Origin: Candidatus Woesearchaeota archaeon
GTDB lineage: Archaea > Nanobdellota > Nanobdellia > Woesearchaeales > SKIA01
Length of the DNA: 64,000 nt
Assembly: GCA_043771635.1 (NCBI GenBank)
Contig: JAYVHA010000006.1
Coordinates: 1,668 to 65,667 of the forward strand
Reading direction: 5' to 3'
Part shown: positions 4,872-63,759 of the stretch, piece after piece
Layout: each line of letters opens with the position of its first letter
How positions within the stretch are numbered: position 1 is the stretch's first letter
Program-made: the position numbers and the translations under genes
Notes under the pieces: generated by a model
What the model was told of the DNA's origin: nothing
Database searches by the model: none
Seen by the model: only the letters and a program-made list of their open reading frames with translations

Positions 4872-4881
4872 GGTTATTCCG

Positions 4882-20482: not shown

Positions 20483-20501
20483 ACCATGTCGACCCAACGC
20501 T

Positions 20502-21785: not shown

Positions 21786-21827
21786 CATCATAGGAATGTT
21801 TTAAAGGACAACCTCTCATAATTAGCT

Positions 21828-22184: not shown

Positions 22185-22212
22185 GACATAGTATTTTTCG
22201 TCTGAAACTTAG

Positions 22213-22842: not shown

Positions 22843-22888
22843 TAATTAAATTTAACCTAAGAATAAAGAAAAAAGATAGAAAAAATAT

Positions 22889-38340: not shown

Positions 38341-38412
38341 ACAAAGCTAAAGCAAACAAAGCTAAAGCAAACTCAGCAATAGCAAACAAAGCTAAAGCAA
38401 ACAAAGCTAAAG
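38341..38412. repeat. 15-nt tandem repeat (caaacaaagctaaag) x about 5, intergenic
   Basis: Direct reading: acaaagctaaag caaacaaagctaaag caaactcagcaatag caaacaaagctaaag caaacaaagctaaag. Lies between the Zn-ribbon gene's 3' end and the TatD promoter. Confidence 0.6.
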
Positions 38413-38828: not shown

Positions 38829-41800
38829 TTAATACACTATTGATGTATTGGTTGTAAGCGCTCGCACACCTACAATGAACATGTTTGTTAGGTTTACTGA
38901 ACCATTTACGCTAATGTTTACACTGCTTGAGCTGCCAGCCGTAATGTTTGGTAAGTACCATCTTAGTGACGTGCCGGAAGCTAATGGACCATTTACTATC
39001 TGTGACTCGAACGGCACAGAACTATAACTCGCATTGAGACCATGCGGCACGAACCCATAAGCGAACACGTCATGCTCGGTGTAGTTCTGGGCATTTGTTA
39101 TGTTAATTATTATGGTGCGTTGCTGCGCCGCGACATCTGTTACGTTCCAGCGCACAGTTAAGTTTACTGCGCTGCGGATACTTGCATTGGCAGTTGTGCT
39201 ATTTGGATTGTAGAATAGTTTTGCACAAGTCACAGTATAATTGACTACGCCCTCAAGGGAGAACGCAGTTGTGTTATCGTATAGACCGCGCGTTCCGTTG
39301 TAGACCATGGTTGCGTTACGGTCAAAGAACCTAATTGTGCAGTTCGCATCCGTAATGGTGCCGCCTGTTGAATTTGTTGCATTCGCATAGTAGCGTCCAA
39401 GGGAATTTGAATATATTGAACCGTTGAAGTATTCTTCACTGTCGAACACGCTGAGTCCTATGAAACCATATACAGTAAAGTTTCGCAGCGAGTAGTTAGT
39501 TGTAAAGAAGTACTTTGCAACTGGAATGGCGGACGTATTCCACACACCCACTCCGTAAGTGAAGAGGTTCTGCGTCGCGTTCCAAACAGTTCCGTTTGAT
39601 GTTGCGACTGGCATAGTAGTACCGCCAATTGGAGGAAGTAACGTCAAGTTAAGTGTTAAGTTATAGGTTTGGTTAAGTACTGTTGCGTTTTCAAAACCGA
39701 AGCTAGACGCTGCTAGGTATAATAATGCTGTATCCGATTCATTGTATTCAAGTCGAGGCCTGTCCGCTGCAAGCTCGTAAGACACGTTTATTCCACCGTA
39801 TATTAGTAAAGTGCGAGTTCCGTTTGGAATGCCGCCGCTGTTGTTCATTGACCATGTCCAGTTGCCAGCATACATCGTCGAGTTTGGATCTATCGTTAAG
39901 TTGACATACGTGTCCGTCGTAACGTTCGAACCTAGATAGATTGTACCGTTTGGCAATCCTAATGGGTCGGTACGGTTTGCCCATACTTCAACTAAGATCC
40001 CGTTTGGAACTCCTGCTTTCACTCTCGTTACTAGCAAAGTTTGATCTGCGAAGAGCGCACTTACTCCGTCACGATCAACAATAGTATCATTTGCTGGCGA
40101 CTCTGGCGTAAGCGATATTGGCGTAACATTCAAGGTAGCGGACACATTTGCCTGTAGTACATAATAGAATAATGAAAGGTTACTTGTTGCGTTACACGTT
40201 ATGTTCATCAGACCTTGGACAGTTGGAGTATACAACACAGTTACGTTACCACTGGCATTAGTTAAGTTGCTTGCGACAAACGAGCCACCAGCATAAACGC
40301 TCACGTTTAGTCCTGCAACAGCAGCCGACGTATGACTGTCAATTACTGAACAAGCAATAATCATAGTCTCGAACGCTTCCACGGGACTTGATATAAGCGA
40401 GATACTACTAACATTAGCAAAGCCGTAAACTGTAGTATTGCGAGTGTTGTTACTGGTTTGTATAAAGTAATTAGCGGAAGCATCCACACTTGCGTTCCAT
40501 ACGCCAACTCCGCCTGCAGGAATTAGTAATGTGTCGTTTCGCCACGTGGTACCTCCAAATACTAGGCCACGCGCAATTCTACTTCCATTTGCAGCAGCGA
40601 GAGATTGGTTTACAACAGCTCCGTAACTTGCATTCAATGCACTTCGATTTTCAGGACCGGCGGAGGTTATATTCAAACGTACAGTTACTGTTTGATTTTG
40701 AGTGTAGTTGGAGTCCAAATCGAAGGTACCATTCTCATAAGCGATAATGAGCTGACCAAACACAATTACTGCGCGCGTACCATTAGGTGCTCCTGCACTG
40801 CTGTTTCCATACCAGCTCCAATTACCTGCGTATATCGAAGCATTAGGATTGAAGTAAACAGTAATGCTGCCGCTGCTAGTTGTATTGTTCGCGAACAGAA
40901 CTGCGTTTTGCGCAGGACTAATGGTGCCTGGGACAGTTAAGTTCGCACGCACATCGATTGCAACGCCATCAGGAATGAAGCTCGGTACAGTTAACACAAA
41001 TGTAGCATCATCAGGCAAGGTAGTATTAGCACTATCGCGATCTAATGCAGTACTATTTGCAGGAGCGGTTGGCGTTATTGGGAAAGCGACCACGCTCACA
41101 GATGTATTGCGCTCGGGCTCTAGGCCGCGGAAGTATGAAATTGCAGGCTGATCCGTTACGTTACAAGTAATCGTGTAAGAACCCGTAACATTAATTGCGT
41201 GCGTGAGTGAAGTGTTACCGGTTAAATTTGTACTGTTTAAGCCGATTAGTATTCCGTTTCGATAGAATGAAACAGTAGCGCCGTTTACAGGGACACTTGT
41301 TACTTGGTTTTGTACGCTACAACTTGACGTAAACGATTGATATGCAAACGGCGCTGCGTTCGACGACGTACTGTTAGTTACGTTCATAATTCCGTACACT
41401 ACTAATGTGCGGTTACTTGCATTCATGAAGAACCAATTGGCTTGCGCGTCTACTGTTGAGTTCCACACACCAGGGCCGCCTGGCAGGTTTATTGCAATTG
41501 TTCGGTTCCATAGCGAACCATTGTATGTGAGCGCATAGCTCGCGTTTCCTGAAGTACGCTCGAAAGTAGCATTTGTTACGGTTGCATACGAACTGTTAAG
41601 CTCACTACGCGTTTCAGGTCCTGCGCTCGTAACGTTAGCTTGCACCGTTATGCTTTCATTTTCGGTGTAGTTTACATTTGGATTTGTGGTAGCACTGTTG
41701 TACACCGCGGTGAGCTGTCCGTAAACAAGCACTGTCAAACTTCCATTGCTATCGCCATTCGAGGCATTTCCATACCAAGACCAGTTACCTGCGTAGATGC

Positions 41801-44800
41801 TGCTGTTAGGGTTAAAGTATAAAGTTGCGATTCCACCACTTGTAGTGTTGTTGCCGAAAAGCACCGCAGCTTGACCTAGGCCGGCTGGACTTGTTAGGTT
41901 TCCTCTGAAGTCCACTCTCACACCATTAGGAACTACGCTTGGCACCGCCACTGTTAGCACTACTACATCAACCATGCTGGCATTTCCACTATCACGATCA
42001 ACCGCTGTATTATTCGCTGGGGAGGTTGGCGTAATTGTGAAAGGCGTAACAGTTACTGTGCTATTACGCTCAGGTTCTGAGCCGCGGAAGTACAAAATGG
42101 CTGGCTGATCACTTATGTTACAAGTTATAGTGTAAGTGCCAGTTGTGTTAATGCTGTGCGTCAAGGTAGCAAACCCTGTAGCGTTAGTCGCGTTCGTACC
42201 CAGCAGCGTTCCATTTCGATAGAATGATACAGTTGAGCCTGCAACGCTGTAGCCACTAAGTTGATCCTGAACACCGCACGACGCAGTTGTTACTTCAAAG
42301 GCCATGATGCTTGTCGGCAATGACGTATTACTGGTTACGTTTGCAAAGCCGTAGAGCACAAACGTTTTGTTTGTAACGTTGCGATAGAAGTAGTTCGCGC
42401 TACTGTTGGCTATTGTTGACCATGTGCCGACGCCGTAAAGTTGACTTAGTAGGTGAGTGCCATTCCAGAATGGATTAGTGTAACTTAGCGTTGCGTTCGT
42501 TGTATAGCCGCTCGTATTCGCGATTGTGTTGCGCACACTTGCTCCATAGCTCGCGTTAATCTGATCACGCGACTCAGGACCTGAGCTTGTTAAGTTTACT
42601 TCAATTCGCGCGCTGTCAGTTTGATTGTAGCTGCCGTTAGGATGTTGAAGCGCGTTTCTATAAGTGGTAACAAGCCCGCCGTAAACAGCCACAGTGCGTG
42701 TTGTGTTACCGAAGCCCTGGCTGTTGTTACCGTACCAGGTCCAGTTTCCTGCATATATGCTTGCGTTAGGGTTGAAGTACAGTACTGCGCTGCCGCCAAC
42801 AGTTGTGTTATTACCAAAGACTATGCTGTTTTGACCGAGACCGTTTGGCGTTGTTAAGTTTGCAATGAAGTCAATGCGTACGCCGTCAGGGATTGTACTA
42901 CGCACTGTGACATTGAGCATTATTACATCAGCGTCTGTACTGTCCACACTGTCACGGTCTACTGCGGTATCGTTTGCTGGAGAAACAGCGTTTAGCGCGA
43001 ACGGCAGAACTGTTATCGAAGTATTTCCTAGTGGCGCGTCGCCGCGGTAGTAGAATATATTGCTCTGGTTGCTGACATTGCACGCTAATACATACGTACC
43101 TGTAATGTTAATGCTGTGCGTTATTGTTGTGCGGCCTGTTGTATTTGTTGTGTTCGTTCCAATAAGCGTTCCGTTTCGGTAGAATGAGACAGTGGCGCCT
43201 GTTACGTTTACATTCGTGTGCTGGTCCTGCACGCCACAGGTCATGGTGGCAGACTCAAACACTTCTATCGTAGATGCGGACGTAGTGTTGGAAGTTATAT
43301 TCATGAAGCCGTACACAGTAGTATTTCTCACTCCTACCGTGGTGCTATTGAAGAACCATGCAGCCCAAGCAGTAGCCGTTGCGTTCCACACACCTACACC
43401 GTTTGGAGGCATAAAGAGCGCGCTACCCGACCAAACTGGAGTGCTATATGCAAGGCCTGTTGTATTGTTGCCATTTAGCGGAGATATCAGACTTGCATTT
43501 GCCGCGGCACCATAGTTTGCGCTAATCTGGTCGCGTGTTTCCGGACCACTGCTAGTAACGTTCACACGCAGTGTTGCAGTCGCGTTCTGCGTGTAGTTAA
43601 CATTCGGATCGAACGAACCGTTTTGGAACACCGCAGTAAGCTGTCCATACACATGCAAATAACCGTCAATGTTACTGTAGGCATTGCTGTTGTTACCAAA
43701 CCACGTCCAGTTACCTGCGTACAACGTGCTATTAGGATTAAACAAAAATGACGCGCTACCGCCGACAGTAGTATTATTACCGAGCAGTATATTAGTTTGA
43801 CTTAGGCCTGCTGGAGTTGTAAGGTTTCCAAGGAAGTCAATTCGAACACCATTAGGAACATAGCTTGGCACTGTGATGTTTAGCACTACTGTGTCCGCCA
43901 TACTGCCATTACCACTGTCGCGATCGAGTGGGGTTCCGTTTGCCGGACTCGTCACGTTAATTGCGAAACCGACCACAGTAACTGTAACATTTCGCTCATT
44001 TTCTAGTCCCTTAAAGTATAGTATCGCTGGCTGATCGCTAATGTTGCAGGTTACAATGTAAGTGCCAGTTACGTTTATAGTGTGAGTTAAAGTGGAAGTT
44101 CCGGTTGCGTTAGTTGTATTTGCACCGATAAGCGTTCCATTTCGGTAGAACGAAACGGTTGAACCTGCAACACTGTAGCCACTAAGCTGATCCCTCACAC
44201 CGCAAGTCGAGGTAATTGACTGGAATGCAGTAGGAAGCGCAGGGCTTGTGCTGTTGCTAGTTACGTTTGCAAAGCCGTAGAGGACAAACGTTTTGTTTGT
44301 GACGTTACGATAGAAGAAATTAGCACTGCTGTTTGCAAGCGTAGTCCAAGTACCAACACCCAATAGGCCGCTAAGTGGCTGCGTTCCGTTCCAGAATGGA
44401 TTAGTGTAACTGAGCGTTTCGTTCGTTGTATAGCCGCTAGTGTTCGCGATTGTATTACGCGCACTTGCTCCGTAGCTCGCATTAATCTCATCACGCGACT
44501 CAGGACCAAAGCTTGTCAAGTTTACTTCAATTCGCGCGCTGTCGGTTTGATTATAGCTACTATTAGGGTTGAACGAGCTGTTACGGTAACTAGTATTTAG
44601 ACCGCCGTAAACAAGCACTGTTAGTGTTGCGTTCGACGTACCGCTACTCGCGTTCGCATACCAAGTCCAGTTACCTGCATAGATTGTCGCATTAGGGTTG
44701 AACCACAAAACTGCGCTACCCGCGAGCGTAGTATTATTGCCGAATAAAATATTGGTCTGAGCAAGTCCCGAAGGTGTTGTTAAGTTACCACGGAAGTCAA

Positions 44801-47800
44801 TACGTACGCCATCAATAACTGAACTTGGCACAGTGACATTAAGCATTACAAAGTCAACATCCATAGTATTTACGCTATCGCGGTCAAGGACCGTATCATT
44901 CGCGGGAGCAACCGCATCAATCGGGAACGGAATTACAGTAAGCGTAGCATTCTGTTCTGGAGCATCGCCGCGGTAGTAGAATATGCTAGTTTGATTAGAT
45001 ACGTTACACGAAACAGTGTATACCCCCGTGCTATTTTGAACATAGGAAAGCGTGGTGTAGCCTGTTGCGTTCGTTGTATTCGAGCCGAGGAGTGTGCCAT
45101 TCAAGAAGATTGAAACGGTTGCGCCACTTACATTCCTGTTTGTGTGCTGGTCTTGTACGCGACAAGTGCTAGTCGTAGAACTAAAGGCAACAATTGTTGA
45201 AGGAGATACCAAACCACTCGTAACATTCATGTAGCCATAAACAGTAGTGTTTCGCACTCCTACTGTAGTGCTATTGAAGAACCATGCAGCCCAAGCAGTA
45301 GCCGTTGCGTTCCATACGCCCACACTGTTCGGCGGAATAAACAAGGCACTACCACTCCACACGGGAGACGCATAGCTGAGGCCTGTAGTGTTATTACCAC
45401 TAAGCGGAGATAGTAGGCTCGCATTCGCTGTCGCAGCATAATTAGCGCTAATCTGGTCACGCGTTTCAGGACCGCTGCTTGTTAGATTAAGGCGTAACGT
45501 AGCCGTGCCGTTCTGCGTGTAATTAGCATTTGGATCGAATGAACCGTTTTCAAACACGGATGTCAATTGACCGTAGACAAGGAAAGTTCTCGTGCCATTG
45601 AGTGTACCGCCAGTTCCGTTTGCCCACCAAGTGTAGTTTCCCGCATATCGAGTGCTATTAGGATTAAACCATAATGTAGCGCCGGAAGCTACTGTGGTAT
45701 TGTTTCCTAGGAAAATATTAGTTTGTCCTGCAATTCCTGCTGGATTAGTTAAGTTAGCATACCACTCGATTCTAACTCCATTCGGCACTACACTGTCGAC
45801 CGTTACATTCAGATCAGTTAGGTCGGCCATGGTAGCGTTTGCGCTATCTCTGTCGAGTGCAGTGTTATTTGCAGGCGCTACTGGCTGAACAACATATTCA
45901 GTTACATTTATTGAGATATTCCTTTCTGGCTCGAGCCCTCGCACATATGAAATGGACGGCTGATCACTTACGTTACAAGTGAGAGCATAAACGCCTGTTG
46001 TGTTAATAGTGTGAGCGAACGATGACAAGCCGGCGCTATTAGTAACATTTGTGCCGAGTAGTTGTGCGCCCCGGTAGAACGATACGTTCGCTCCCGATAC
46101 AGTGTAGTTGCTGTATTGCGCAACAACTGTGCAGCGGATGTTAAACGTACTATAAACTGTCGTAGTATTTAGAGTGACGTTCGCTATAGTTACATTCATC
46201 AAACCGAGGAGGGTGAAGTTTCGAGTGGTGCTGTTTACATAGAACCATTGCGCACTAGCATTACCTGTGCTTGACCAGTTGCCGACTCCTGCTAGTGACG
46301 TCGCAACTTGCGTGGCGTTCCAGTAAGGATTAGTGTAGCTTGCTGTTGCGTTACGCGAAAAGTTGCTAGTATTTGCAATTCGCGTCGAGAGTGCTGCGCC
46401 ATACGTAGCATTCAGTATGTCTCGAGTTTCAGGTCCGCCTGTGCTGGACAGATTAAATCGTAACTCGAATGTTTCATTCTGCGTTTGATTTACACCTGGC
46501 GTTCCGCTCGCATTGGCGTGTACAATGCTAAGTCCACCGTATATTCCAATAGTTGCACTTGACTGGCTGCTCGCATTCGTAGCATTCGGCCACCAAGTCC
46601 AGTTTCCTGCATAGTATGAGCTGTTAGGATTGAACGCAAGTACGGCTGTACCTGTAATGTTAGTTACTGCACTTCCGAGGAATAAATTAGTTTGACCACC
46701 TATGATTGGACTCGTTAGGTTACCCCAGTAAGTTACGTTAATTCCGCTGTCGCCGTCAGCGTTAACCACTAAGTTTATACTGTCAGCATCGACTGCGCTC
46801 GCGCTGTCACGGTCTACCGGCGTCTCATTAGCTGGAGAAGTGATCACTAATGTAGGATTGATTGTGACTGTGTTCGAGCACGCACGAGAGCTCTCGTTTG
46901 CACCATCATTTGCGGTCACGCACGCTTGCCAGGTTTGATACGCTTGAGTCTCATTTGACACAATGGTTGCGTTCCAAGTGGTGCTGTTTCCCTCGAGCAT
47001 TATTTGCCGGATTTGGGCGAGCGAAAGCGTACGATTGTAAATTCGTACATCATCTATTCTACCGTCAAAGTCCTTTGCAAGCGTAGTTGTAGGCTTACCG
47101 ATTAGTAACGATAAAGCGTTACTGTCCAAAGAAGTCATATTGACCGTACTTAAAGGACTTTGAGCATCCTCTACACCGTTAATATAAAATCTTATACCTT
47201 GAGTACTATTTGCAGTATATGCTATCGCAATGTGTTGCCAAGCAATAGTATTTCCTGAACCGGTTGATGTCTCAAGACGTAGCTCTCCAGAGTTACCTGT
47301 GAGCATAACACTATAGGTGTCTGTTCGGCCGCTGTTAAATGCAACTTCATCACGCCATAAGAGCAACGGTTGTCCTGCTACAAAAGTGCCTTTTGACAAC
47401 AGCGTCCCATCATCAGTTAAGTCATTATTTTTTACCCACATAGCTACAGTTAAGGCAGTCGTGCCGTCAATTTCGCTTCTGTCACCTAGGTCTATTCCTC
47501 CGTTTACAGGTCCGAAGTAGTATGCACCACGGCTATTGACGCCACCAGTACTGTTCCAAGTTACGCTGCTACCAACAGCACCATCATATCCGTTGCCAGA
47601 GTAGTCTTCTGCGTACGTTGAGTTAGATCCGCCTTCAAACGGCATTTGGACAGTAGCATAAGGCGCTCCGTCAATCGACCAAGCGTATATGTTCGATACC
47701 GTATCGCCTTCTGCGTCCGTTGTACTTTGATTTTGAGCAAACAAGAATGCCGATGATAGATTTAGCGGATTGTCCGAAGCTATTAGCGTTGGACTCCCTT

Positions 47801-50800
47801 GCGTCGGAGGTACGTTTTGCACTTCAAATGTTCTGTTTGAAGCATTTACCAATAATAGCCATGAAACACTTCCGTTGAGCCGCGCATCGTAAGTACCGCG
47901 GTTATCAGTTGTTATTAGCGCAAGCGAACCATTCCAGTCACCCCCATCATACTGCAGAGGGGTTGCGATTTGCGTTAGATTATCTCGAATAATTGTCGCA
48001 TTAAACGACGCATTATAGCTGCTGTTCAGGAGCGCTGCTGTTTCAGGTCCGTACATAACAGGTGTGGCGTTTACCAACACAACGCCTGGCTTTTCATAGC
48101 TGGCATTTGGATCGACAGTTGCACTTGTGAAAGTTAAGTTGTACGAACCGTAGACGAACGCAGTCCGAGTTGCATTAGGCACACCACCCGACAAATTAGC
48201 ATACCAACTCCAGTTACCAGCGTATATGCTTCCATTCGGGTTCCAGTACAGTATAGCCCAGTTTCCAGCTGTAGTATTATTCGAACCAAATAGCACATCA
48301 GTTTGCGAGAGGCCATTTGGCGACGTAAGGTTTCCTCTAAACTCAACCAACACTCCTGCCGGAACCACAGAAGATACTGTTACGTTAAGTGCAATAACAT
48401 CAGCCAAAGTGCTATTTGTAGCGTCTCTGTCGACTGATGTACCGTTTACCGGAGAGACAGGCTGCAATATAACAGGAGTGACAGTAATTGTAGTATTTCT
48501 TTCAGGACCATTTCCACGGTAGTAGAATAGAGGCGACAAATCAGTTACATTGCAAGTAACCGTGTAAACTCCTGTTTGGTTTATGCTGTGTGAAATACTT
48601 GTGTTGCCAACAGAATTTGTACCATTGGTTCCTATGAAAGTTCCATTCACGTAGAATGATACCGATGCATAGGGTACACTGTAGTTGCTGTACTGATCAG
48701 ACACGCTGCATGCTGAAATTATGGTTTGATAAGTAGTAACGCTTGTTGCGGACGAATAGTTCGCCGTTACATTCATGTAACCATAAACTAGCATTGTGCG
48801 GTTCGTACCATTGCTATAGAACCAGTTCGCAGTTGCGTTAATGCTACTGTTTGATCGGTTTACTCCAGGTAAGACAGTAAGAAGATGGCTGCCATTCCAG
48901 TATGGCCCGACATACGACATGACCATGGCGCTTATTGTCCCGCTACTGTTCATGTAACGGCTTGACAAAACGGCCGAATAATTACTGGCTAATTCAGCGT
49001 CTACTTCAGGACCATTGCTTGTAACATTTACCTGTACGGTCGCAGTATCTGTTTGGTTGTAAGTTGCGTTTGGATGGTAAGTATTATTCCTGTATACAAC
49101 CGCAAAGCTACCATACACAAGTATATTCTTTACTTGGCCTGATACGCCGGCGCTCGAATTACCCCACCAAGTGTAGTTACCGGCGTACATTGTTAAATTT
49201 GGATTGAAGTAAATATTCGCCCAGTTTCCAGCTGTAGTATTGTTGCCTCCTAAGGATATATTCTGCTGACTTGGAACTATGCCATTTGGATTCGTTAAGT
49301 TCGCCCGGAATTCGATATATGTGCCACTAGGAACGTAATTAGGCACGGATACGTTGAGCATTACATTGTCAGGATCAAGACTGTAGGCGCCATCGCGATC
49401 CACTGCAGTTCCATTCGCCGCCGTGGTTGCGTTAATTACGTATGGTATAACTGTAAGTGAAGAGTTGCGCTCGAATTCATTGCCGCGCAAGTAGAAAATT
49501 GCGGTTTGATTGGTAATGTTGCACTGGACGCCGTAGGTGCCCGAAGTATTTACTGCGTGAGTGATGGTAGTTATGCCAGTCGCATTAGTATTATTTGCAC
49601 CAAGATATGTGCCATTCAAGTAGAATGTAACCGTGGCTCCTGCTACAGCAGCATTCGATTGCCGATCTAGAACAGTACACGAACTTATGGTAGTTTGGAA
49701 CGCTGAAATTGACGCGGGAGTCGAAGTGTTTACAGTTATATTCATGAAACCAAATACGACAAAGCTACGGTTAGTCCAGTTTCGGTAGAACCAAATGCTG
49801 TCCGCCGCCGTAGTAGTGTTCCAAGTACCAACACCATTAAGCGCTGAGAGCGTGTGCGTTCCATTCCAGAAAGTACTGCCATTGGTTAGATTAACTATAT
49901 TCGTGGAACCACTTGTATTGTATATTGTGTTGTTGACATTAATTCCATAAGTAAGATTTAGCGCACTGGCGTTTTCAGGACCGAACGATGTAACGTTAGT
50001 TTCAATTCTTGCGATGTCCGTTTGGTTATAAGTGCCGTTTGGATGGTATAGACCACTAGTGTAAGTGGCATTAAGTCCACCATACACTAAGAAGTTTCTC
50101 ACCTGGCCAGATACGCCAGCGCTCGAATTACCCCACCAAGTATAGTTACCTGCGTACATTGTCGCGTTAGGATTAAAGTAAATATTCGCCCAATTGCCCG
50201 CCGTAGTATTATTGCTGCCTAATGTAATAGTAGTTTGCGCCGGAAGGATACCGGCAGGACTAGTGATATTAACATTGAAGTACACAAGGACACCACTAGG
50301 AACTGAACTCGGCACACTGACGTTTAGCATTATACTGTCAGGATCGGTTGCATCTACGCTGTCACGATCAACTGCAGTGCCGTTTACAGGACTTGAAACG
50401 TTAATTGCATATGGCGTCACGGTGAGCGATGTGTTTCGTGCAAACTCATCACCGCGGAAGTAGAAAATACCAGTTTGATTTGTAACGTTACACTGCACTC
50501 CGTACGTGCCAGTTGCATTAACTGAGTGCGTGAGTGTCGTAATGCCCGAAGCGTTTGTTGAATTGCTACCTAGGAATGTGCCATTTAGGAAGAAGGTTAC
50601 TGTCGCGCCTGACACACCGTAGTTAGTGTGTTGATCGATGACACTACAGGAGCTTAACGTAGTGCCGTATGCAACAATAGACGCCGGAGTGGTGCTGTTG
50701 CTTGTAATATTCATAAAGCCGTATACTGCAATTGTTCTATTAGTCCAATTCGAATACCAGTAAGTGCCGGTCGAGTTTGAGGTTGTATTCCAGATACCCA

Positions 50801-53800
50801 CGCCCTTTAAGGTTAGTAGATTAAAAGTAGTGTTGCGCCACTGCGTTCCATTAAAGGACAGGTTTACGCCGCTGCGGCTTCCCGTGGTATTCTGGAACGT
50901 GTTGTTTAGTGCGATGCCATAGTTGGCGCTTAGTTCTGAGCGGGATTCAGGTCCTAAACTTGTGACATTAACTGCGACCACAGCAGTGTCATTTTGGTTA
51001 TAGGCGCTGTTAGGACTGAGCGTATCGTTTTCATAGCTCGCGTTTAATCCACCCTTCATAATAAACGAGCGAGTATTATTTGAAGTGCCGCCTGTTGAGT
51101 TGCCAAATACAGTCCAGTTTCCTGCGTACGTACTGCTGTTCGGGTTGAGGTGGAAGTTTACCCATGCGCCAGCAGTAGTCAAGTTACTTCCGAAAATAAT
51201 GTTAGTTTGTCCAAGACCGCTTGGGTTTGATAAGTTACCAAGGAAGTCAATGGATGCGCCTGCTGGTACATAGTTAGGTACTGTCGCATTTAGCATGATT
51301 ACGTCAGGATCTGTGCTGTCAACACCGTCACGGTCGACTACGGTGGCGTTTGTTGGCGCGACCATGGTGATTGGAACAGGCGTTACGGTTACTGCCATAG
51401 TCCCATTCGGCGCATTACCAACAAAGTAGAACAGCGAAGTCTGATTTGTGATGTTACACCACACATGATAGTTGCCCGAGGCGTTTATTGTGTGCGTAAG
51501 TGTGGATTCGCCAGTGCTGTTTGTAGTGTTTGTACCGATAAACGTGCCGTTTCGGTAGAAGTCAACAGTAATGCCAGGTATGCGATAATTACTAAGTCTG
51601 TCGCTAATGTTACACCAAGTAATCATTGATTGGTAAGCGGTTGGTGACGCAGGCGAAGTATAGTTCGCGGATACATTCATGAAACCAAAGACGTCCGTTG
51701 TGCGGTTCGTGAAATTCAGGTAAAAGAATTTTCCTCCTGTACTTGCAGTGATGTTCCAGCGACCAACACCAAGAAGCGCCGAGAAATTTATAGTGCGGTT
51801 CCAGAATACTGAGCCGTTGAACACTAAGTTAGTTGTAATTAATGAACCGCTTGTATTGTATAACGTGTTGTTTACGCTTATGTTGTACGTCGCATTCAGC
51901 GCGGACAAGTTTTCAGGACCGTAAGTACTAATATTAACTTGAATTAGCATAAGGCTTGTTTGGTTGTAGCTCGCGTTTGGATCGAAAGTTGTATTGCGGT
52001 ACGTAGCATTTAATCCACCCATAATAATAATTGTGTTCGAGCCGTTTCCGTACCCGCTCGACGAGTTACCGTACCAGCTCCAGTTGCCAGCGTAAGATGT
52101 GCTATTAGGATTGAAAATAAATGACGTTCCACCTGTGGCGTTCGTGATGTTTGAACCTATAAGTACGTTTGATGAATTCGCAGAAGGTATTACTCCTGTT
52201 GGATCAGTTAAGTTCATGCGGAAGTCAATGACAGTTCCTGCTGGAACGGCTGCAGTACTCGTGTTTAGACGTAGCACAACCGAGTCAGCGTCTGTCGCGT
52301 CGACACTGTCGCGGTCGACTCGGGAGTTGTTAGTGGGAAGCCAAGGAGTGATTGCATACGGAAGTACAGTTAGAGAAGCGTTTCTCTCCCATTCTATTCC
52401 GCGATAATAGAATATCTCTGTCTGATTGCTAATATTACATGTTATGATGTAGCTGCCAGACTGGTTTATTTGGTGAATAAGTGTTACGTTACCTGTAGCG
52501 TTGGTAAGATTTGTTCCAATGAGAGTGCCGTTGCGGTAGAATGATACATTCACATTGGCTACGGCATAGTTCGTAATTGAGTCAAGAACGCTACAGCGCG
52601 AAATGGACTGCGTGAACGCGTCAATTGAAGACGCATTAAGCACGTGACCCGTAACATTCATGTTACTGAGTATTGTTACGTTTTTACTAGTCGTATTTGT
52701 ATAGAAGTAAGTTGCAGTTCCGTTAATGGTGCTGTTCCACACACCGACTCCCTTTAGGTTTGTTAGATTGTGCGTTGCGTTCCAGTATGGGTTCGCGTAT
52801 GAGGCTGAGATGTTGTTAGTTCCACCTGACGTATTGCGCAAGAGACTCACTGCGAGAGTCAAGTAATTGGTGCTCAGCACTGTTGCACTTTCAGGACCTT
52901 TACTTGTTAAGTTCCAACGCACTTCAAGCGTCTCATTCATTGTGTGGTTCAGACTTGGGAACGTGCTACCGTTGAAATAGGAGATATTGTAGCTACCCAT
53001 AACTACAAAAGACCCTAGTACGTTTGGAACGTAATTAGTTCCTTCTCCCCACCAAGTATAGTTACCTGCGTACATGCTGCTGTTCGGGTTGAAAACTAAA
53101 GTAGATTGACCGTTCACGTCCGAACTATTTTGACCAAGTACGAGGTTTGTCTGCGCAAGTCCTGACGGGTCGGTTAAGTTTGCCCTGAATGTAATAGTTA
53201 CGAACGGATCGTATGTTGTTAAATTTAGAACAACACTATCGTTGTGCGTTGCGTTTTGACTGTCACGGTCAAGAATAGTGTGGTTTCCAGGAAGCAGTAC
53301 ATCAACACCGCCAACCACTGTCAAATTGTTCGAACAAAGCGTGGTGCCGTCGCTCGCATTATCGTTCGGCGTGACACAAGCATAGTAGGTTTGCCCGCCA
53401 CGCGTGTCGCCAGCTACAATTGTGCTCGTGTTAATGGAATTATTTCCTTCAAGCCATATCCGATACACTTGACTTGCAGGCAAACTCCTGTTATAGATGC
53501 GAACTTCATCCATGTAGCCTGCAAAGGAAACGCCGGTACCATCGGGCGTTTGACCGAGAGTTAAGTTCAGGTTATTGTAAGACGTTGCACCTGCAGTTCC
53601 CGTACCCCAAGCAGTACCATTTACGTAGAACGTAAACGTGGTTACGTTGTTGGTTACTGCGAAGTGCTGCCACTGGTTTGAACCCCACGCACCAACAATG
53701 GATGTGTCCGACGGACCGTTGTCAAAACGTAGCGTGCGAGTTGCACCGCCGACACTTGAGCGCATAATAAACTCCCAACCTCCAGCGCCTCCATTCTGTC

Positions 53801-56800
53801 GGCTAACTAGGCGATAGTTGTTTGTACCTGCTGGAGTTACCGTAGGATATGCCCAAAGCATTATTGTATAATTTTCACCTAGGACAAAATCCGAGCTATT
53901 CCCAACGTCAATCGCTTCACCGCCACCACCGAAGCGTACCGATGCGCCGACCTTACCGAAGCCGCTAGAGTTCGGACAATTGCCTGATACGGGTCGACAA
54001 GTTGCGTTGTTACCGCGCGCATAGTCCCGGATAGCGCCGTAGGTGGAAGGTGCCGCTAATATTGTGTTAAACGGAAGATTAAGTAGTGAGATAGGATTAC
54101 CACTCTCATACCAGTTATAGGTGTTCGTTACACTCGGCGAGTCAACATCAGCTGTCGATTGATTATAGACAGTTATATTTTCGCTACTAAGATTGCGGAT
54201 AGTACTCGAGTTTAGTATTGGCGTTGTGTGCGTTGGCGGACTGTTTGTTATGTTGATTAACGCATTCAAGTTCTGAACAGAGAAATCGAAGTTAGCGGAG
54301 TCGGTCGCGTTACAAAGAACTACTGCGTTTGTTGCAGTATTAGTGAAGTTATAGCTAAAAACAGCAGTACCATTGCTATTAGTGATGTTTCTGCCAATTA
54401 GAACTCCATCTAAGAAGAAGCCAATAGTATAATTGTACCACTCAAACTTATTTTGATCGCTAGTGCTGTCGATTGCGTGACAAGTAATGTTCACTATTGA
54501 ATTGTAGGCAGCACTTGTCGATGACAATACTATTGAATCGATTTTTGTGTACTTTGCTTTGTTTACAGTCCAGTTCCAGCGTACTTGAATTGGGATGCGC
54601 GCAGCACCGGCAAGTAATTCTGTGGTGCGCGACCAAGCGCTGCTGCTTTCATTTCCAGCACGGAACGTAAACGTGCTTGTTGAGTTTTCCGCGAAGTCAT
54701 AGTCTGGGTTCGCGATAAAGTAGAAGCTGTAGTTTGTTGCCGCAGCCAAGTTATTCCAGCCCGTCATTTCGGCGCTCGCGTTCTCAGCGTTCTCTCCTGC
54801 GGATGAAAAGAAGTCAATCACGTTTGAACTGTCGTCGTTGTCTAAGTCTCCTGCATAAATGGCGGCAGCTACGTTTCCTGCTGCAATATCAATGTCGACA
54901 GCAGTCCAAGCTCCATTTGCAGGCGTTCCATCATTGTGGAATGCCATAACGTCTTGGTCGTTGATACTTGCAAACACGTCAAGCCAACCGTCACCATCAA
55001 TGTCTGCTACGGAAACTCCCCATGGAGTATCAGTTGTGTCGGCGCTAATGGTTCGTTGCGTCCATGCCGCTCCAGTACACGGGCTTCCGTCGTTTTCTAG
55101 GTACACTACGTCATTTGCCGTCTCTACTCCTATGATAATATCAACGTCACCATCATTATCTACGTCGCCGACAGCCATTGCGTTTGCGTCGCCGCCAACG
55201 TTTGCGGATGCTGCAAACTCAGTCCATGCGCCAGCTACGCCTCCTGTACAATATACATCTACGTCTTCGTCGTCGTCTCCTTGCGCAACGTCAAGGAAGC
55301 CGTCATTGTCGAAGTCGGCAACTACCACTACGTTCGATTCTAGTCCTGTTGCTGCGTCTATGTCAGCAATAGTCCATGCGCCGTTGTATGGTGAACCGTC
55401 GTTTGACCACCAGGAAATGTCGAAAACGCCAGCAACCGCTCCGACGAGGTCTGTGTCTCCATCGTTATCCATGTCGCCGCTAGCAAGACTGTTTACGTCG
55501 CCGCCAGCTGCTAGTTCTACAGTGCTTCGTGTCCAGGCGCCGACAAACGGCGTGCGGTCGCTGTTGTTGAAGCAATACACGTCTTGACCAACCGTACCAC
55601 CACAGATGTCCGGGTAGCCGTCACGATCGATATCAGCAACAACAACCGAGTACGTGTCCGCTAGAACGTTTGCGTCTGCGATGAGTTCAGTCCAGGCGCC
55701 GGCGAACGGAGTGCCGTCGTTCTCAAATATGCGCAAGTCTTCCAAATTATTTCCAATTAGTAAGTCTAAGTCGCCGTCGAGATCAAAGTCACCACCTTGA
55801 ATGATGTTTTCCGTTGTAGTTGTTCCTATGTCAGCGTCAGCTTGGAATTCAGTCCAAGCAGCACCAAACTTATTCGACGAAGGGTTAGTATAAACAAAAA
55901 TATCATCAGCACCTGAAACTAGAACTGTTGCATCCGGGTCTCCTATAATGCGACCAATCTCTCCTGTATTAGCATCAACAGTATAGTCGACGTTGGTACT
56001 CGTACTCACGAAAACGTCAGCGGTTTCTGTTGCGTCGTTAGTTACCCACGCAGTTGGAACAATATACTCTGCTGACGCAGAGTTATTTAACAATCCAAAC
56101 GAGTTATTTGCTATAATTACAGTCTCGCCGTGGTAGTCTGAGTCGAATGCGTACAGCTGCTCAGACTCAATTTGTACTTCAACCAAATAATTACTGTAAC
56201 TGTACAAAGATTCAGCAAAGGCGCCGACATCACGTACGGTTCCGTTTGGCGCGACTTGCAGTATTGATTCTGTACCAATTAATACGTCGTCTGCTCGACT
56301 AGTTGTGTTTCTCGTATCCCACACATAGACGCGCGCGTTATACTGCGCAACGCTGGTGTTTACACCTATTGACCTACTTATGCAAGTTACTAGCGAAGCG
56401 TTAGCGGCGCAACCTTGGATGTCGTACTGCGCTTCACCAAGTCCTGTTTGGTTTGCAACGAACATCCACTGGGTCACGCCAATCTTGTTTAACGATGATA
56501 AATATGATTGATATGCTTCGCTTGCGTTCAGCGTTCGGTTCCATACACGGATTTCATCCATGTCACCTGCAAAGTAGTCATCCGAAGCTGGACCAGCAGT
56601 GTCCGTAATTACTCCAAAGCCCGAGAACTGCAATGTCTTTCGGCCTGCTTCGGACGCGGCAGTGGCATTCAGGATGCCGTCGATGTATATGTTGACGGTT
56701 CCTGTTGTTTCGTCGCGCGTAAACGTGTAGTGCCTCCACGCACCATCATTGATGGCAATAGTGCTGGCTGCGTTCGCGCCGTTACCTGCTTGCATATTGA

Positions 56801-59800
56801 TGTTTCCTGCCACGTTAATCCAGCCCCAGAAAATATCGTCGCCGCCGGCACCTTGCTCTATTCCAGTAATTCCAGGCGCCGTCCAGGGGTTTGCAGAACC
56901 TGTCTGCGTGGTGCGCATCCACAATGAAAGTGTTGCCGTGCGTCCAAGCCAGGTTGTCAAGTTAACACTTGTATTGACAATGCCAGTAGTACCGTAAAAG
57001 CTCATTCCCTGACGTACTACACCGGTAGTGTTTGGAGTTGCACTACCCACTATGTTTGCGGAAATGGCATTGCGACTCACATCGATAGCTTGAGTCGCAC
57101 TCTCACCAAGTGCAGTTAAGTTGTCAAAGTTAAACATAACCTGCAAAGCAGTATCATTGTAGATAGTATAGTTAGTACCGTTCCACAAATATGAGAAGCC
57201 AAGCAAGTTGGTATTATTTATCGATATGTTTACTGTAAAGTTGTTTGCGTTAACTACTGCGCCGTCTTGAGGAGTAGGATTTGTAAACCCAATTTCAATC
57301 GGCAACGGGTCCACTGCGAGCTGTGATTGCGTGATCGTGCCATCAGTAAACGTAAAATTAAGTACAGCATAACCCGCGACAGTCATTACGTTTTTGAGTT
57401 CGCCTGTTTGATCGTCGCAATTATAGTTTTCGATAAAGAGCTGCGCGATGTCAATGCTGTCTTCGGAATTAATTGCATTGTAAGCGTACTGACTTCCGTT
57501 TGTTGCAATAATTGTAAGACTGTTTGACAAATCAGTATTGCCACAAGCCATGCTTAGCAGCACCATTTCTTCCGTGCGACCATTTGTATCAGTGAAGAGC
57601 TCGCTCCAATTCGCGTTTGGACTGAAGACAGTTAAGTTACCAGTGCCTGTTGTATTGAAGAACACTGTCCAGGTTTCCCCGTCCCGCAAGTATTCTAAAG
57701 GATTGAGAATTGAGAGGGACAACTCGTAGGTCTGGTTTGACAAGTGCGGCACAATCCACACGAGGCGATCAAACTTTCCGTCTGCGTTCATGTCCTGCGT
57801 TGTGAATACTACCGGCTCACGCACACCGGCAGTTGTTCTGAATAGTTCGTACTTACTCTGTTGCGCTGCCGTAAACGGCGTCACATCTAAGAAACTCGTG
57901 ATAGCAGTGTAGTGCGTCTCGGCGGATACGACAAGCGCAATGCGATCTGCGGTTTGCTCGGTAATAGTGAGCTGCGGCGCTTCTGTTTCGTAGGTAATAA
58001 CAAGGCTCTCAGCGTCGTTCGTAACAGGTACACTAAGCTCCAAGTCTCCAATCGGCAAGTCAGGAATAATACTAAGCACTTGGTCTTCTACAATTAGTTG
58101 CGAGCTACTTACTACTGGCAGAATAATCGGCTGTGAAGCTCCTGGCGTGCCCGTGCTCGTATCAATAGGAGCAGCAGATGGTACAATTATTTCTAGCGCG
58201 CCGAGCGTAACCGCTTGCTCTGGCTGTGACGCATCAGGCTGCTCTGAGAGTGTTTGCGCTGCTTCGATAATATCCACGCGCGCACTCTTTGCATCCTCGC
58301 CTGTGAGTTCTCCTTGCGCTTCAAGGCTACGCTTAACGTCACTCACAGTGTTCTCTGCAAGTAGTCCGTCAAGCGTCGGCGCAGCATTTGCAGCTGCCGT
58401 AGCAGGCAGTTCATTTTCTCGCAGCGCGCGGCGTAGTTCACCAAGTTCAACGGTTTGCGTAATGTCTTTGCGCACGCCAGTTTGAGCGTCACGAGTTTCA
58501 ACAATAACATCTAGCACAGTCGATGGCAGCGTAATGTTGGTTTCGTTCGAGTTATCAGTAATCTCAATAATTCGCGTCCACTGTACTCGCTCGCCAATTA
58601 TTGCTCTTGACTGCGTATCATTTACAGTTGCATTGCGTAGCGCGTTTATTGCCTCAGTAGCAGAGATAATTATCTCAGTAGCGTTTGTTTCGCTCGAAAC
58701 GTTTGTATTGTTAGTAATAATTGGAAGTGTTAAGTTAGTAGCATTAGTTGCGTTCACTATTACAACTGGTTGTATTGGTACTACTGGGCGCAATAATTTT
58801 ACTTCGCCGATTTGTGTGATAGGAATAAACGTTAGTGCGTCAACTACCACAAGTTCGCTCGTGCCTGCGTTTGACACGCTTACAGTACTTGCAGGATTAA
58901 GCTCATACAAACCTAAGTACTGCTCGCCACCTTGTCGCTGGTTTACTGTTACTGTGGCGCGGCGCGCACCCGTAATTATTACTTGCGCGTTCGAGGCAAG
59001 CGAAGGATCTGCTGGCGTGTTAATACTTACTGAATACTGACCGCGCGCAAGGCCTGGGGAATACTCGACTGCGCTTCCTTTGTTAAGATTTAGGTCGATT
59101 AAATAGTCGAAGCCGACATAACCAGGGATTGTCGTTCCTGACGCCCACACACCATTGCTACGAACGCGCGCGTCGCCGTTGTCAAGCACTACACGCAAGT
59201 CAACCGGAACAAGAGAGCCTAAAATTAAAGTAGCAAAGAACTCTGTGTTTGCTGGCACTGCGCCAAGGTCCCAAATAATAGTGTCGGAAGTAGCAACAAG
59301 CATTCCACTCGCCCGTTGCTGCTGACCTGCAGCGTCAAGCCAAGAAATTACTTTACCTGCGGCAGCAGGTAGTTCAATTGTGTAGTGCTCATGCGAGACG
59401 CCAAAGCGCTCAGTAATTAGAACTACTTCGTCTCCGGACAAGCGGTTGTACCAACGAGTTCGGAAATTGTTACTGGTGTCAAGGTCGCCTGCAACACTGA
59501 CTTGCACTGTGGCAATATTGCGTCCGCCTAAACTGCCGATTGAAACATTGTTCATTCCTGGTGCAAGCGTAATTTCGCGCGTGTTTGTCGCACCAGTTTG
59601 GTTACCTACTTGCGCTCCGGCAATAATTGTGAGTGTTGCAGTAAGCGGCGCGTTAAAACTATTGTACAGCACCGCGTTCGCATTCTCTGCGGTTCCACCG
59701 AGCGTAATTACGCGCACGTCCAAACTCACTGGTAGACCGGCAGCTTTCACAACAATACTGTCAGTTACACTTGCGGTTGACGAAGTAGCGGAGTCGCCAC

Positions 59801-61691: not shown

Positions 61692-61849
61692 ACGCTGCGC
61701 GCCTGCCGAGCGAGCTTGCGTGAGGCACAGAGAAGCTCGAGTAGTTCTTGTAGCAGAACGAGCGCTAGTCCTGGCAGTTAAGCGCACACAAGTACTTGCA
61801 GCGCAGCGCATGCTAGTGCTTGCAGCCTTGTTTCGCGGATAAGCAAAGC

Positions 61850-62344
61850 TCATTTTTGCCCTCCGCGACCTAGCACGTAGCGCACTTGCTGCGTCGGTAA
61901 GTTTGACAAAATTTGCGCAAGGCGAACAGGCGTAAGACCAGTTTGCTTGCAAATTGTGGTTAGCGGCAATCCCTGCTGGTACGCGTGCACTATGTGCGTG
62001 TATCTTAGCACAAGCGGAGTGACTTTACCGCGGCGTATGCGCGCCAAGTGGGGTTTGAGAATTTGTTGAAGGCGCTTTGGGGTGATGGACTCATCTTGTC
62101 GACTAGAAAATGCAAACGCATTGGCCTGCTTAAGGACAGTGTGTGCGAGCTGAGGACTGATTGTTGCAGCACGATCTGAGAAGGTTATTGTGCCGTCGCT
62201 GCGAATCGCAGATGTCTTAAGTTCTGCAAGCTCGCTGACAGTGCAGCCACTCTCGTATAAAAACTGGGCAACAAGTTTATCGCGCTCACGCTCTATAGAA
62301 CTAATGAACGACTGATACTCCTCATAATCGAGGTAATCTACCAC
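61850..62344 (-). CDS. small tyrosine-recombinase-fold protein, catalytically degenerate
   Basis: 164 aa that aligns by eye to the XerC/D catalytic domain (ERDKLVAQFLYESGCTVSELAELKTSAI ~ box I; TPLVLRYTHIVHAYQQGLPLTTICKQTGL ~ HxLRHxxAT box II; QQVRYVLG ~ the catalytic Tyr). Arg-I (T), His-II (L) and His-III appear substituted. Confidence 0.45.
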   Translation of the reverse strand: MVDYLDYEEYQSFISSIERERDKLVAQFLYESGCTVSELAELKTSAIRSDGTITFSDRAATISPQLAHTVLKQANAFAFSSRQDESITPKRLQQILKPHLARIRRGKVTPLVLRYTHIVHAYQQGLPLTTICKQTGLTPVRLAQILSNLPTQQVRYVLGRGGQK

Positions 62345-62506
62345 CTGTTTTTTTCTCCAACGAAAAAAACTCCCCCACGGAGTTTCCCTTTATTGTTGAA
62401 TAATCAAACTAGACATTTAAAAGTGTATTGATTTCACCGACGGTGAATAGAAAAAAAATATTCCCTTCCAAGTGAAAACCTGGAAGCGCAGTTAATCCCG
62501 ATTTCC

Positions 62507-63427: not shown

Positions 63428-63451
63428 CGAATGTTAATATCTTCCATAATC

Positions 63452-63466
63452 CGGTATTTAAATGTT
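63452..63466 (-). promoter_or_regulatory. archaeal TATA box upstream of the archaellin-like gene
   Basis: TATTTAAAT (plus strand 63455-63463) lies 28-36 nt upstream of the ATG at 63427. Confidence 0.4.
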
Positions 63467-63489
63467 TCGTGAGTGCGCATAACAAATTT

Positions 63490-63759
63490 TTACCCTAAAC
63501 CGTTTGAAACGCACGAATTCTGCTCTCTGACGCGGCGCAAATAAACCGAGACGACAACACACCAAATTAATACTAGTGCAAGCAGCAGCCAATAGTGGAC
63601 AGCGGAAAACACACATGCAATTTCAAGCAAATAGGAAATTACCGCAAAAAACAGAATTCCACAATAAACAAAACACTTGCGCAGACTGGACTCCACCGCA
63701 CATAAGACTATTATAGTAGGCGTGAGCGCCCAGGTTATGAGCGAGCCTGCACCAGACAC
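63490..63759 (-). CDS. small integral membrane protein
   Basis: 89-aa ORF with 2-3 predicted TM helices. Confidence 0.3.
   Translation of the reverse strand: MSGAGSLITWALTPTIIVLCAVESSLRKCFVYCGILFFAVISYLLEIACVFSAVHYWLLLALVLIWCVVVSVYLRRVREQNSCVSNGLG

Follow-up and report, generated by a model that had tools for sequence, protein, structure and literature searches.

Architecture of the giant gene

The window, by which we mean the whole 64,000-nt stretch of DNA analysed here, contains a giant gene on the minus strand (Table 1). The mechanical ORF (38829-61952, minus strand, 7707 codons) begins at a TTG at 61952; the window protein, P0002, runs from M88, with its called start M at 61691. The gene is flanked by TatD, a small integrase-like ORF and an archaellin-type gene, and its surroundings, with Cdc6/Orc1, archaellin-type genes and RtcB, are those of an archaeon.

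Pfam searches with the whole protein revealed three Laminin_G_3 matches, FG-GAP / FG-GAP_3 and Golvesin_C. The FG-GAP region is probably a beta-propeller, and the N-terminal hydrophobic segment MLPLAVVLSIALALVLTITAGQAYG was read as a putative signal peptide or membrane anchor. Within the C-terminal 106 aa Pfam detected no RTX or other significant domain, and no C-terminal membrane anchor motif was evident on reading the sequence. The remainder of the architecture is dominated by 14 modules of ~320 aa (U1-U14), the array of which is split between U6 and U7 by the third Laminin_G_3 domain.

The protein contains 511 N-X-S/T sequons, which within the arrays reach 9-10 per 100 aa, 2.2 being expected. 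This high density is compatible with an extracellular location. The protein is probably surface exposed and probably heavily N-glycosylated, and it may function in adhesion or as a spacer. An earlier reading of the window from its letters alone (hereafter the sequence-only reading) had likewise described a giant modular and probably exposed protein, which our analysis supports.

Table 1. Features of the giant gene and of its duplicated block. Positions are those of the window.
Feature	Position	Strand	Evidence and remarks
Giant gene, probable surface protein	38829..61691	-	ORF list and translation; called product 7,620 aa (P0002)
N-terminal hydrophobic segment MLPLAVVLSIALALVLTITAGQAYG	61617..61691	-	Read from translation
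FG-GAP / FG-GAP_3 region	54753..55835, approximate (~ORF aa 2040-2400)	-	Pfam PF13517, E=7.5e-26, four stretches; PF01839
Second Laminin_G_3 domain	53466..53927 (ORF aa 2676-2829)	-	Pfam PF13385; adjacent to array 1 on its upstream side; E=1.4e-32 refers to the whole protein with two stretches, coordinates to the best of them
Array 1	47820..53306	-	U1-U5 (318-327 aa each) and truncated U6 (D1-D2 only); delimited by DRD[SGA] landmarks, unit table and HMM segmentation
Third Laminin_G_3 (concanavalin-like) domain	47010..47501	-	Pfam PF13385, E=3e-21, residues 1018-1181 of second half-protein
Array 2	39150..46850	-	U7-U14, eight full modules of ~320 aa each; unit table and HMM segmentation
Upstream copy of 1926-nt block	43800..45725 (ORF aa 5410-6051)	-	Most of U8 (A), all of U9 (B), start of U10; limits from offset-642-aa identity profile, 60-nt identity bins and repeat families D6 and D7
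Downstream copy of 1926-nt block	41874..43799 (ORF aa 6052-6693)	-	Most of U10 (A), all of U11 (B), start of U12; limits as for upstream copy
Extra 0.15 copy	41577..41873	-	U12 D1 aligned at offset 1926 with U10 D1, individual 20-aa bins showing 40-80% aa identity
Longest exact repeat (47 nt), U8 D2 copy	45268..45314	.	Exact-run comparison
Longest exact repeat (47 nt), U10 D2 copy	43342..43388	.	Exact-run comparison

Predicted fold of the module

An AF2 model of the module (pLDDT 87.8) consists nearly entirely of beta strands. Foldseek searches of the PDB with this model matched three-Ig proteins (OPCML, NEGR1, MAG Ig1-3), titin, the SiiE adhesin and an archaeal S-layer protein. Each ~320-aa module is predicted to comprise three Ig-like beta-sandwich domains, D1-D2-D3; with three predicted Ig-like domains per module, the protein would therefore contain ~41 such domains. 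At ~4 nm per Ig-like domain, a fibre of these would, as a rough estimate, measure at least 150 nm. A PDB sequence search with the module profile revealed no match to any solved structure. Pfam searches with the individual domains gave no match for D1 and D2 and only sub-threshold Big_1 and Big_3_5 for D3.

A single duplication of a two-module block

The sequence-only reading had reported two long similar DNA stretches at a fixed spacing within the one giant ORF. This was borne out by a signal well beyond chance: at an offset of 1926 nt, 866 windows of 200 nt showed >70% identity, the best of them 87%. Among the other offsets from 30 to 12000, such windows occurred only at the single-unit offsets 969, 960 and 957 (160, 18 and 6 windows, respectively). 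The spacing had been given as 1920 nt, and no offset between 1900 and 1944 other than 1926 reached 40% for either stretch. The identity of the stretches, given as 85-90%, is 80.4% for 42340-42660 and 72.6% for 43380-43660. The best 300-nt blocks showed 84% (42328-42627 / 44254-44553) and 77% (43294-43593 / 45220-45519) identity.

The 1926-nt block (642 codons) is present in ~2.15 copies at window positions ~41577-45725, and the postulated super-period finds no 1926-nt lattice elsewhere. A self-comparison for a periodic lattice returned only two pairs, the outcome which the sequence-only reading itself had named as speaking against it, so that its strong version fails. Individual alignments showed 69% identical aa and 65% identical nucleotides for U8/U10 and 75% and 72% for U9/U11; all remaining unit pairs share 28-57% aa identity, and lag-2 pairs are not above lag-1 pairs. 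Instead of a double unit as the true repeat, the gene displays 14 single units with only one double-unit duplication. Exact runs between the copies measure 47, 26, 23, 23 and 20 nt. Tandem Repeats Finder reported nothing relevant in the region, because its longest period is 500 nt.

The proposed alternation of two flavours, A and B, holds for four units and fails for the rest of the 14, since the A-B-A-B pattern is limited to U8-U9 / U10-U11. The flavour peptides are ISANYAATANASLLSPLSGNNTTGL at ORF aa 5501 and ISANYGAAANASLISPLNGNNTTGL at 6143 for the one pair, and INASYGASARNTIANTSGYTTN at 5822 and INASYGASVRNTIANTSGYTTN at 6464 for the other. The flavour resides in the middle domain D2, which shows 84-85% identity within the pairs and 35-36% between A and B. 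Within a flavour D2 is the most conserved domain (pN 0.04-0.14), between flavours it is the most divergent. Such a contrast could be explained by an A-B pair acting as a functional super-module, in which selection keeps two D2 specificities in alternation, and relatives do contain lag-2 duplicates (units 2 and 4 of P0005) and a partial X/Y alternation (P0004). With alternation in only 4 of the 14 units, none in the related protein P0003, and further A-like (U13, U12) and B-like (U2-U4, U7) D2 domains that do not alternate, this explanation appears very improbable. A and B are two old variants of D2.

Age and origin of the duplication

Comparison of the two copies revealed pS values of 0.78 (U8/U10) and 0.66 (U9/U11), at pN values of 0.22 and 0.16. 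The fraction of identical residues encoded by the same codon is 0.41 for U8/U10 and 0.53 for U9/U11, the background in all other unit pairs being 0.41. As silent sites are saturated or nearly so while pN is only 0.16-0.22, the duplication is old and has been under purifying selection. The 47-nt exact run exceeds what saturated silent sites predict, so that a few short tracts may stem from more recent conversion. D2 also shares somewhat more codons than D1 and D3 together (Fisher p=0.02-0.04). Ongoing gene conversion was considered and rejected; these two observations remain as weak hints of it.

Informative nucleotides in U10 change their affiliation along the module. In D1, 34 sites support U8 and 61 support U12, whereas in D2 the counts are 114 for U8 and 30 for U12. 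The breakpoint lies at codon column 117 (p=1e-9) and was matched by none of 500 permutations. U10 is thus a statistically supported chimera with a U12-like D1 and a U8-like D2. D3, with 49 sites for U8 and 42 for U12, is not clearly closer to U8. One clean crossover thus leaves part of the pattern unexplained, for which subsequent conversion or differences in rate have to be assumed.

We therefore interpret the region, with a probability of roughly 0.85, as a block of two modules that was duplicated in tandem once, long ago, and persists as a relic in the 14-module array of a giant surface protein, probably heavily glycosylated, whose DPANN host is most likely a Woesearchaeote. Most likely, two A-type modules that stood two units apart underwent unequal crossing-over and so gave rise to the duplication, and the crossover would have left U10 as a hybrid of a U12-like D1 and a U8-like D2. 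Since then silent sites have been fully or almost fully randomised, and the 65-72% identity that the DNA retains is largely a side effect of purifying selection acting on the protein. The combination of silent-site saturation and exact-run length offers a practical criterion to separate such relics from recombinogenic repeats.

Assembly and present-day variation

The sequence-only reading had regarded the region as likely to be mis-assembled from short reads. A short-read assembly could in principle have created a second A-B pair or collapsed further copies, and small-k graphs do branch at the 47-nt repeat: a contig from Logan (k=31, 19,897 nt) breaks off at window position 45285, exactly 30 nt (k-1) into this repeat. 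This contig end is the only effect that we found. Two different assemblies (contigs of 77,126 and 67,001 nt) encode an identical 7,620-aa protein, and the 23-kb ORF is open throughout the region. With 28-35% of nucleotides differing between the copies, reads place uniquely, and a pN far below pS is a pattern of selection, unlike that of an artefact. An assembly artefact is hence extremely unlikely.

The same reading had proposed that 85-90% identity over hundreds of bp provides a substrate for homologous recombination, by which A/B double units would recombine today and an exposed adhesin would vary in copy number or form mosaics. Several observations are in line with such activity, namely the footprint of past recombination in U10, the exact repeat of 47 nt and islands in which identity locally rises to 84-92%. 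Relatives vary in module number, and one of them (L001/P0004, contig JBJKRI010000006.1) displays a genuine 954/1908-nt lattice, in which identity reaches 94% and exact runs extend to 95 nt. In addition, a nanohaloarchaeal giant protein has been reported to lack a 529-aa Ig-like stretch of its homologue (PMC10266531). In the window, however, the units concerned are only 65-72% identical in DNA, their silent sites are at background (U8/U10) or close to it (U9/U11), and a single exact run exceeds 26 nt. Besides the identical product of two assemblies, three assemblies agree without a mismatch over 11.5 kb, and the protein is the single member of its 90% cluster among ~15 billion proteins. We consider present-day variation at this locus unlikely. 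Recombination among units did shape the array in the past, as the U10 chimera and the lineage-specific expansions in relatives indicate; at 65-72% identity the copies now represent an evolutionary relic, not a live recombination hotspot, and the region is a poor present-day substrate for homologous recombination. The locus is neither hypervariable nor mis-assembled in the available assemblies, and L001/P0004 would be the better place to look for copy-number variation.

A metagenome scan with U8-U12 detected no population variants; the best-segment identity of relatives was at most 45%, apart from one 36-residue fragment with 50%. Look-ups of neighbours on the 3' side returned only contigs of up to 3.4 kb, none of them covering 41.5-45.8 kb, and an exact look-up of the TatD neighbour gave no match.

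A Phage_integrase-like ORF of 164 aa lies just upstream of the gene, with a score of 26.2 bits that is below the cut-off of 27.1. It prompted us to consider recombinase-driven inversion of the shufflon/invertase type, which was dropped for want of inverted repeats: none of at least 24 nt was found in 37000-64000, and near the gene start only short ones at chance level were detected.

Comparison with known giant and repetitive surface proteins

Giant surface proteins are leading candidates for the host attachment of genome-reduced DPANN archaea, and to our knowledge almost none of them has been characterised. The present analysis provides a domain grammar for one such protein, with 14 modules of three predicted Ig-like domains, LamG inserts and an extreme sequon density. 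A single ORF of >5,000 aa with LamG and tandem Ig-like domains (Ig-like by prediction) would place it in the giant DPANN LamG/Ig-like class.

The SPEARE-type giant proteins of nanohaloarchaea measure 8,880-9,409 aa and combine LamG with tandem Ig-like domains (PMC10266531). The window protein resembles them in size class, DPANN host, N-terminal hydrophobic segment and LamG with long Ig-like runs, and also in that entire blocks of Ig domains are inserted or deleted between homologues (PMC10266531). SPEARE-type proteins contain a VirB4/TraG-like ATPase domain, as re-analysed in PMC10266531, and have an adjacent AAA+ ATPase gene. In contrast, Pfam detected no VirB4/TraG-like ATPase, coiled-coil tip or protease in the whole window protein, and TatD, the integrase-like ORF and the archaellin-type gene take the place of the AAA+ ATPase neighbour. 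The 320-aa three-domain module is a further difference, for which no sequence relatives were detected beyond a small set of Woesearchaeota-type contigs.

Bacterial adhesins of the SiiE, LapA/RTX and Bap types are similar in carrying many Ig-like domains as beads on a string and in repeats that grow by tandem duplication. They differ from the present protein, which is encoded by an archaeal gene, gave no sign in Pfam of the RTX repeats or type I secretion signal of such adhesins and shows extreme sequon density, and their repeat unit is a single domain, whereas here it is a three-domain module. Archaeal S-layer glycoproteins (pentameric, PDB 7ptp) share chains of Ig-like domains (Foldseek), many sequons and the archaeal envelope; the window protein is ~10x longer, has LamG and FG-GAP domains, and shows neither sequence similarity to solved structures nor an evident C-terminal membrane anchor motif.

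In size-variable surface proteins, such as the alpha C protein of group B Streptococcus, the repeats are near-identical in DNA and their number varies among isolates. These proteins, the model behind the sequence-only reading, resemble the present one as surface proteins with tandem coding repeats. Here, in contrast, the repeats share 65-72% of their nucleotides, their silent sites have reached or nearly reached saturation, and no difference separates the available assemblies. Near-identical (at least 95%) DNA repeats of the contingency type were not detected, the best 300-nt block reaching 84% and the longest exact run 47 nt.

Relatives of the module

A word-indexed protein search with U9 detected one 459-aa fragment only, and finding the relatives required an exhaustive profile search, in which they were confined to a small set of Woesearchaeota-type contigs. 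A genome scan revealed four loci only, all in Candidatus Woesearchaeota MAGs.

The array evolution that emerges comprises conserved ends, internal tandem duplications and a documented chimeric module. It is tempting, if doubtful, to regard the 320-aa D1-D2-D3 module (~15 conserved sequons, no Pfam model or solved relative) as the unit of an undescribed giant-glycoprotein family restricted to Woesearchaeota. In such a family the ends would be fixed, unequal crossover would renew the interior, frequently two units at a time, and the fast-switching D2 might be an element of host or ligand specificity. The window array would then be an aged one, and arrays like that of L001/P0004 would be young, homogenising and subject to real copy-number variation. 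The unit tree joins the terminal modules of different proteins as orthologues and groups the internal ones by lineage, the latter having expanded separately in each lineage.

Module array of the giant protein

The giant gene carries an array of 14 modules (U1-U14) of 318-327 aa each, which make up the C-terminal 60% of the giant protein. Module boundaries were set by a DRD[SGA] landmark together with an HMM built from the units. U1-U6 are followed by a LamG domain and then by U7-U14; U6 is cut short after two thirds of the module length. An AlphaFold2 model based on a 13-unit alignment (pLDDT 87.8) is almost all-beta and shows three sandwich domains, D1, D2 and D3. Foldseek comparison of this model with the PDB revealed the three-Ig proteins OPCML, NEGR1 and MAG Ig1-3, titin, the giant adhesin SiiE and an archaeal S-layer protein, and a search of PDB sequences with the module profile gave no match. 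Pfam matches in the whole protein were confined to three Laminin_G_3 domains, an FG-GAP/FG-GAP_3 region and a Golvesin_C domain near the N-terminus, and the N-terminus of the called protein (7,620 aa) is the hydrophobic segment MLPLAVVLSIALALVLTITAGQAYG.

In the module arrays N-X-S/T sequons reach 9-10 per 100 aa, where composition predicts 2.2, and many of these sites fall in conserved alignment columns. The whole protein (gene 38829-61691) has 511 sequons, densest at 39150-53306. This extreme density suggests, at sequence level, a glycan-coated fibre. Given the array anatomy, the Ig-like fold model and the sequon density, the best reading of the giant protein is a chain of about 41 Ig-like domains, long and heavily glycosylated, with lectin-like LamG and FG-GAP parts; we infer that it is glycosylated and surface-exposed.

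A single duplicated two-module block

Across the giant gene every offset from 30 to 12,000 nt was scanned, and 200-nt windows with more than 70% identity were counted. An offset of 1926 nt (642 codons) stood out with 866 such windows and a maximum of 87%; elsewhere such windows occurred at the single-unit offsets 969, 960 and 957 alone. The sequence-only reading of this DNA had described similar stretches at a fixed distance, and these are non-random; their spacing, however, is 1926 nt and not the proposed 1920 nt, with the cited stretches otherwise below 40% identity at offsets of 1900-1944. At 1926 nt they showed 80.4% (42340-42660) and 72.6% (43380-43660) identity instead of 85-90%. A repeat finder gave 84% for 42328-42627 / 44254-44553 and 77% for 43294-43593 / 45220-45519 at the same spacing. 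Identity in 60-nt bins ranged from 0.38 to 0.92, and the longest exact runs between the block copies are 47, 26, 23, 23 and 20 nt.

Pairwise aa identity was 28-57% for all module pairs but U8/U10 (69% aa, 65% nt) and U9/U11 (75% aa, 72% nt). The two peptide flavours A (U8, U10) and B (U9, U11) do alternate, each of the motifs quoted for them occurring twice in the order A-B-A-B. Lag-2 pairs outside these four units were no closer than lag-1 pairs. The supposed super-period, with a double unit as the true repeat, thus comes down to one duplication of a two-unit block, present in about 2.15 copies (window about 41577-45725), and is not a lattice. The earlier observation is thus partly confirmed and its interpretation partly supported: the repeat is real and ordinary, a two-module block that was duplicated in tandem once, long ago, and has been maintained by selection.

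Identity matrices computed per domain located the flavours. D2 is 85% (U8/U10) and 84% (U9/U11) identical within pairs and 35-36% between flavours, whereas D1 identity is 57-68% among all U8-U12, whatever the flavour. The difference between A and B sits mainly in D2.

Age of the copies and recombination footprint

Nei-Gojobori analysis gave pS 0.78 and pN 0.22 for U8/U10, and pS 0.66 and pN 0.16 for U9/U11; these values put silent sites at saturation or close to it and indicate purifying selection on the copies. At positions with the same residue in both copies, the fraction with the same codon was 0.41 for U8/U10 and 0.53 for U9/U11, compared with a background of 0.41 from all other, ancient unit pairs. 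With codon sharing at or close to background, the leftover DNA similarity derives mostly from protein conservation. Near-identical DNA, which had been proposed as a substrate for recombination and which defines contingency-type variable repeat proteins, is not what the window gene contains. The 47-nt exact run exceeds the length predicted by silent-site saturation, and shared codons are slightly commoner in D2 than in D1+D3 (p=0.02-0.04); short later conversion tracts between the copies are possible, a weak hint.

Informative nucleotide sites at which U10 sides with either U8 or U12 reveal a chimeric junction in the duplicated block. D1 of U10 favours U12 (61 sites against 34 for U8; p=0.007), D2 favours U8 (114 against 30), and D3 is divided (49 for U8, 42 for U12). 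The best single breakpoint lies at the D1/D2 boundary, at codon column 117 (p=1e-9; reached by 0/500 permutations). If two A-type modules at a distance of two units had undergone unequal crossover, the order A1-B-[A2/A1 hybrid]-B'-A2 would result, and this would explain why the similarity at offset 1926 continues into D1 of U12. D3 of U10 fits one crossover poorly, so that later conversion or rate differences would have to be allowed.

Agreement between assemblies

Mis-assembly of the region had been considered likely, but larger-k assemblies agree and gave no sign of it. The 7,620-aa protein is the sole member of its 90% cluster, and an identical protein is encoded on two contigs (77,126 and 67,001 nt) from two ENA assemblies. 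Three assemblies are identical to window 52507-64000 with 0 mismatches. A 19,897-nt Logan contig, carried by four samples, overlaps the 47-nt exact repeat (45268-45314) by exactly 30 nt (k-1, k=31) before it ends at window 45285; small-k graphs therefore break there, the only break seen.

Relatives of the module

An exhaustive profile search over 1.84 billion representatives (E of 1e-3 or better) matched 343 proteins. The whole three-domain module was found in only about 15-20 of them, D3-like domains being more widespread. The best matches were four giant proteins, P0003-P0006 (5,594 to 7,799 aa; P0005 apparently truncated at the N-terminus), and all relatives from genome collections belong to Candidatus Woesearchaeota MAGs. 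Together with the archaeal gene neighbourhood, this makes DPANN/Woesearchaeota the best-inferred source of the window. This giant-protein family is poorly described. The module tree revealed positional orthology for the last module (U14, module 10 of P0003, module 6 of P0005), the penultimate (U13, module 5 of P0005) and the first after LamG (U7, module 7 of P0003). Internal modules group by protein, which indicates lineage-specific expansion.

The homologue P0004 (6,531 aa; JBJKRI010000006.1, Woesearchaeota Bin_55) has seven internal modules that are 65-83% identical with a partial X/Y alternation. Its DNA forms a true lattice at 954, 1908/1911, 2865 and 3819 nt, in which identity reaches 94% and exact runs reach 95 nt. 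This gene is a much better candidate than the window gene for a repeat that still varies in copy number or has been collapsed during assembly. Recombination-driven turnover of units, as earlier suggested, thus operates in the family on evolutionary time, whereas the window array is an old product of it.

Among known systems, the giant protein comes closest to the very large surface proteins with LamG and Ig-like domains found in DPANN archaea. In a nanohaloarchaeal pair of 8,880 and 9,409 aa, 529 aa of Ig-like domain sequence are reported to be absent from one of the two homologues (PMC10266531). With bacterial BIg adhesins and with the S-layer proteins of archaea, the giant protein has only its fold in common.

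The C-terminal ~110 aa (window 38832-39149, minus) are conserved in P0003, P0004 and a further giant homologue, P0008, end in variants of a shared motif (…TTNTSIVY, …TTNTTVIY, …STVVYG, …STEVYG) and have no Pfam match. They may serve in anchoring or sorting.

Gene neighbourhood and other window features

Archaeal genes surround the giant gene (Orc1/Cdc6, RtcB, PIN-KH ATPase and archaellin-type genes), and together with the archaellin-type genes it may form a surface-appendage neighbourhood. An integrase-like ORF lies directly upstream and co-oriented in 3/3 assemblies. No inverted repeats of at least 24 nt were found near it or the giant gene, and an inversion system driven by this ORF was rejected for want of repeats able to support one. 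A 15-nt tandem repeat, ACAAAGCTAAAGCAA (4.8 copies, 38341-38412), sits in the short stretch that separates the giant-gene 3' end from the TatD gene.

Coordinates of features in the window, the source contig and the module
Feature	Position	Strand	Remarks
Giant-gene ORF	38829-61952	minus	7707 codons; contains the repeat
Called start of giant protein	61691	minus	methionine; public-data protein
D1	about residues 1-112 of module		AlphaFold2 model
D2	about residues 113-230 of module		AlphaFold2 model
D3	about residues 231-320 of module		AlphaFold2 model
Integrase-like ORF, 164 aa	61850-62344	minus	Phage_integrase catalytic domain, 26.2 bits, just below the 27.1 threshold
Archaellin/pilin-type gene (Arch_flagellin)	62507-63427	minus	upstream of giant gene
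Three Flagellin_arch-type genes	locus L020, 6639-8681		just past the window in the source contig
Three MacB/FtsX-type permease genes	378-1592, 1589-2809, 2891-4111	minus	tandem paralogues, ~405 aa
ABC ATPase gene	4191-4871	minus	follows the permease genes (region 378-4871)
Two adjacent DNA methyltransferase genes	6832-8464	plus	N6_N4_Mtase and D12/Dam-like
tRNA-Ser	10540-10625		confirmed by ARAGORN and Rfam
tRNA-Phe call	18800-18891	minus	ARAGORN, without Rfam support; inside 864-aa ORF 17481-20075
Three further large genes	14842-26464		869 aa with Gly_rich_2; 864 aa without domain; 1,191 aa with Big_13 domains

The two methyltransferase genes have no obvious neighbour that encodes a restriction enzyme, and the tRNA-Phe call is probably a false positive. 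Should the three further large genes encode exported products, envelope genes would be abundant in the window.
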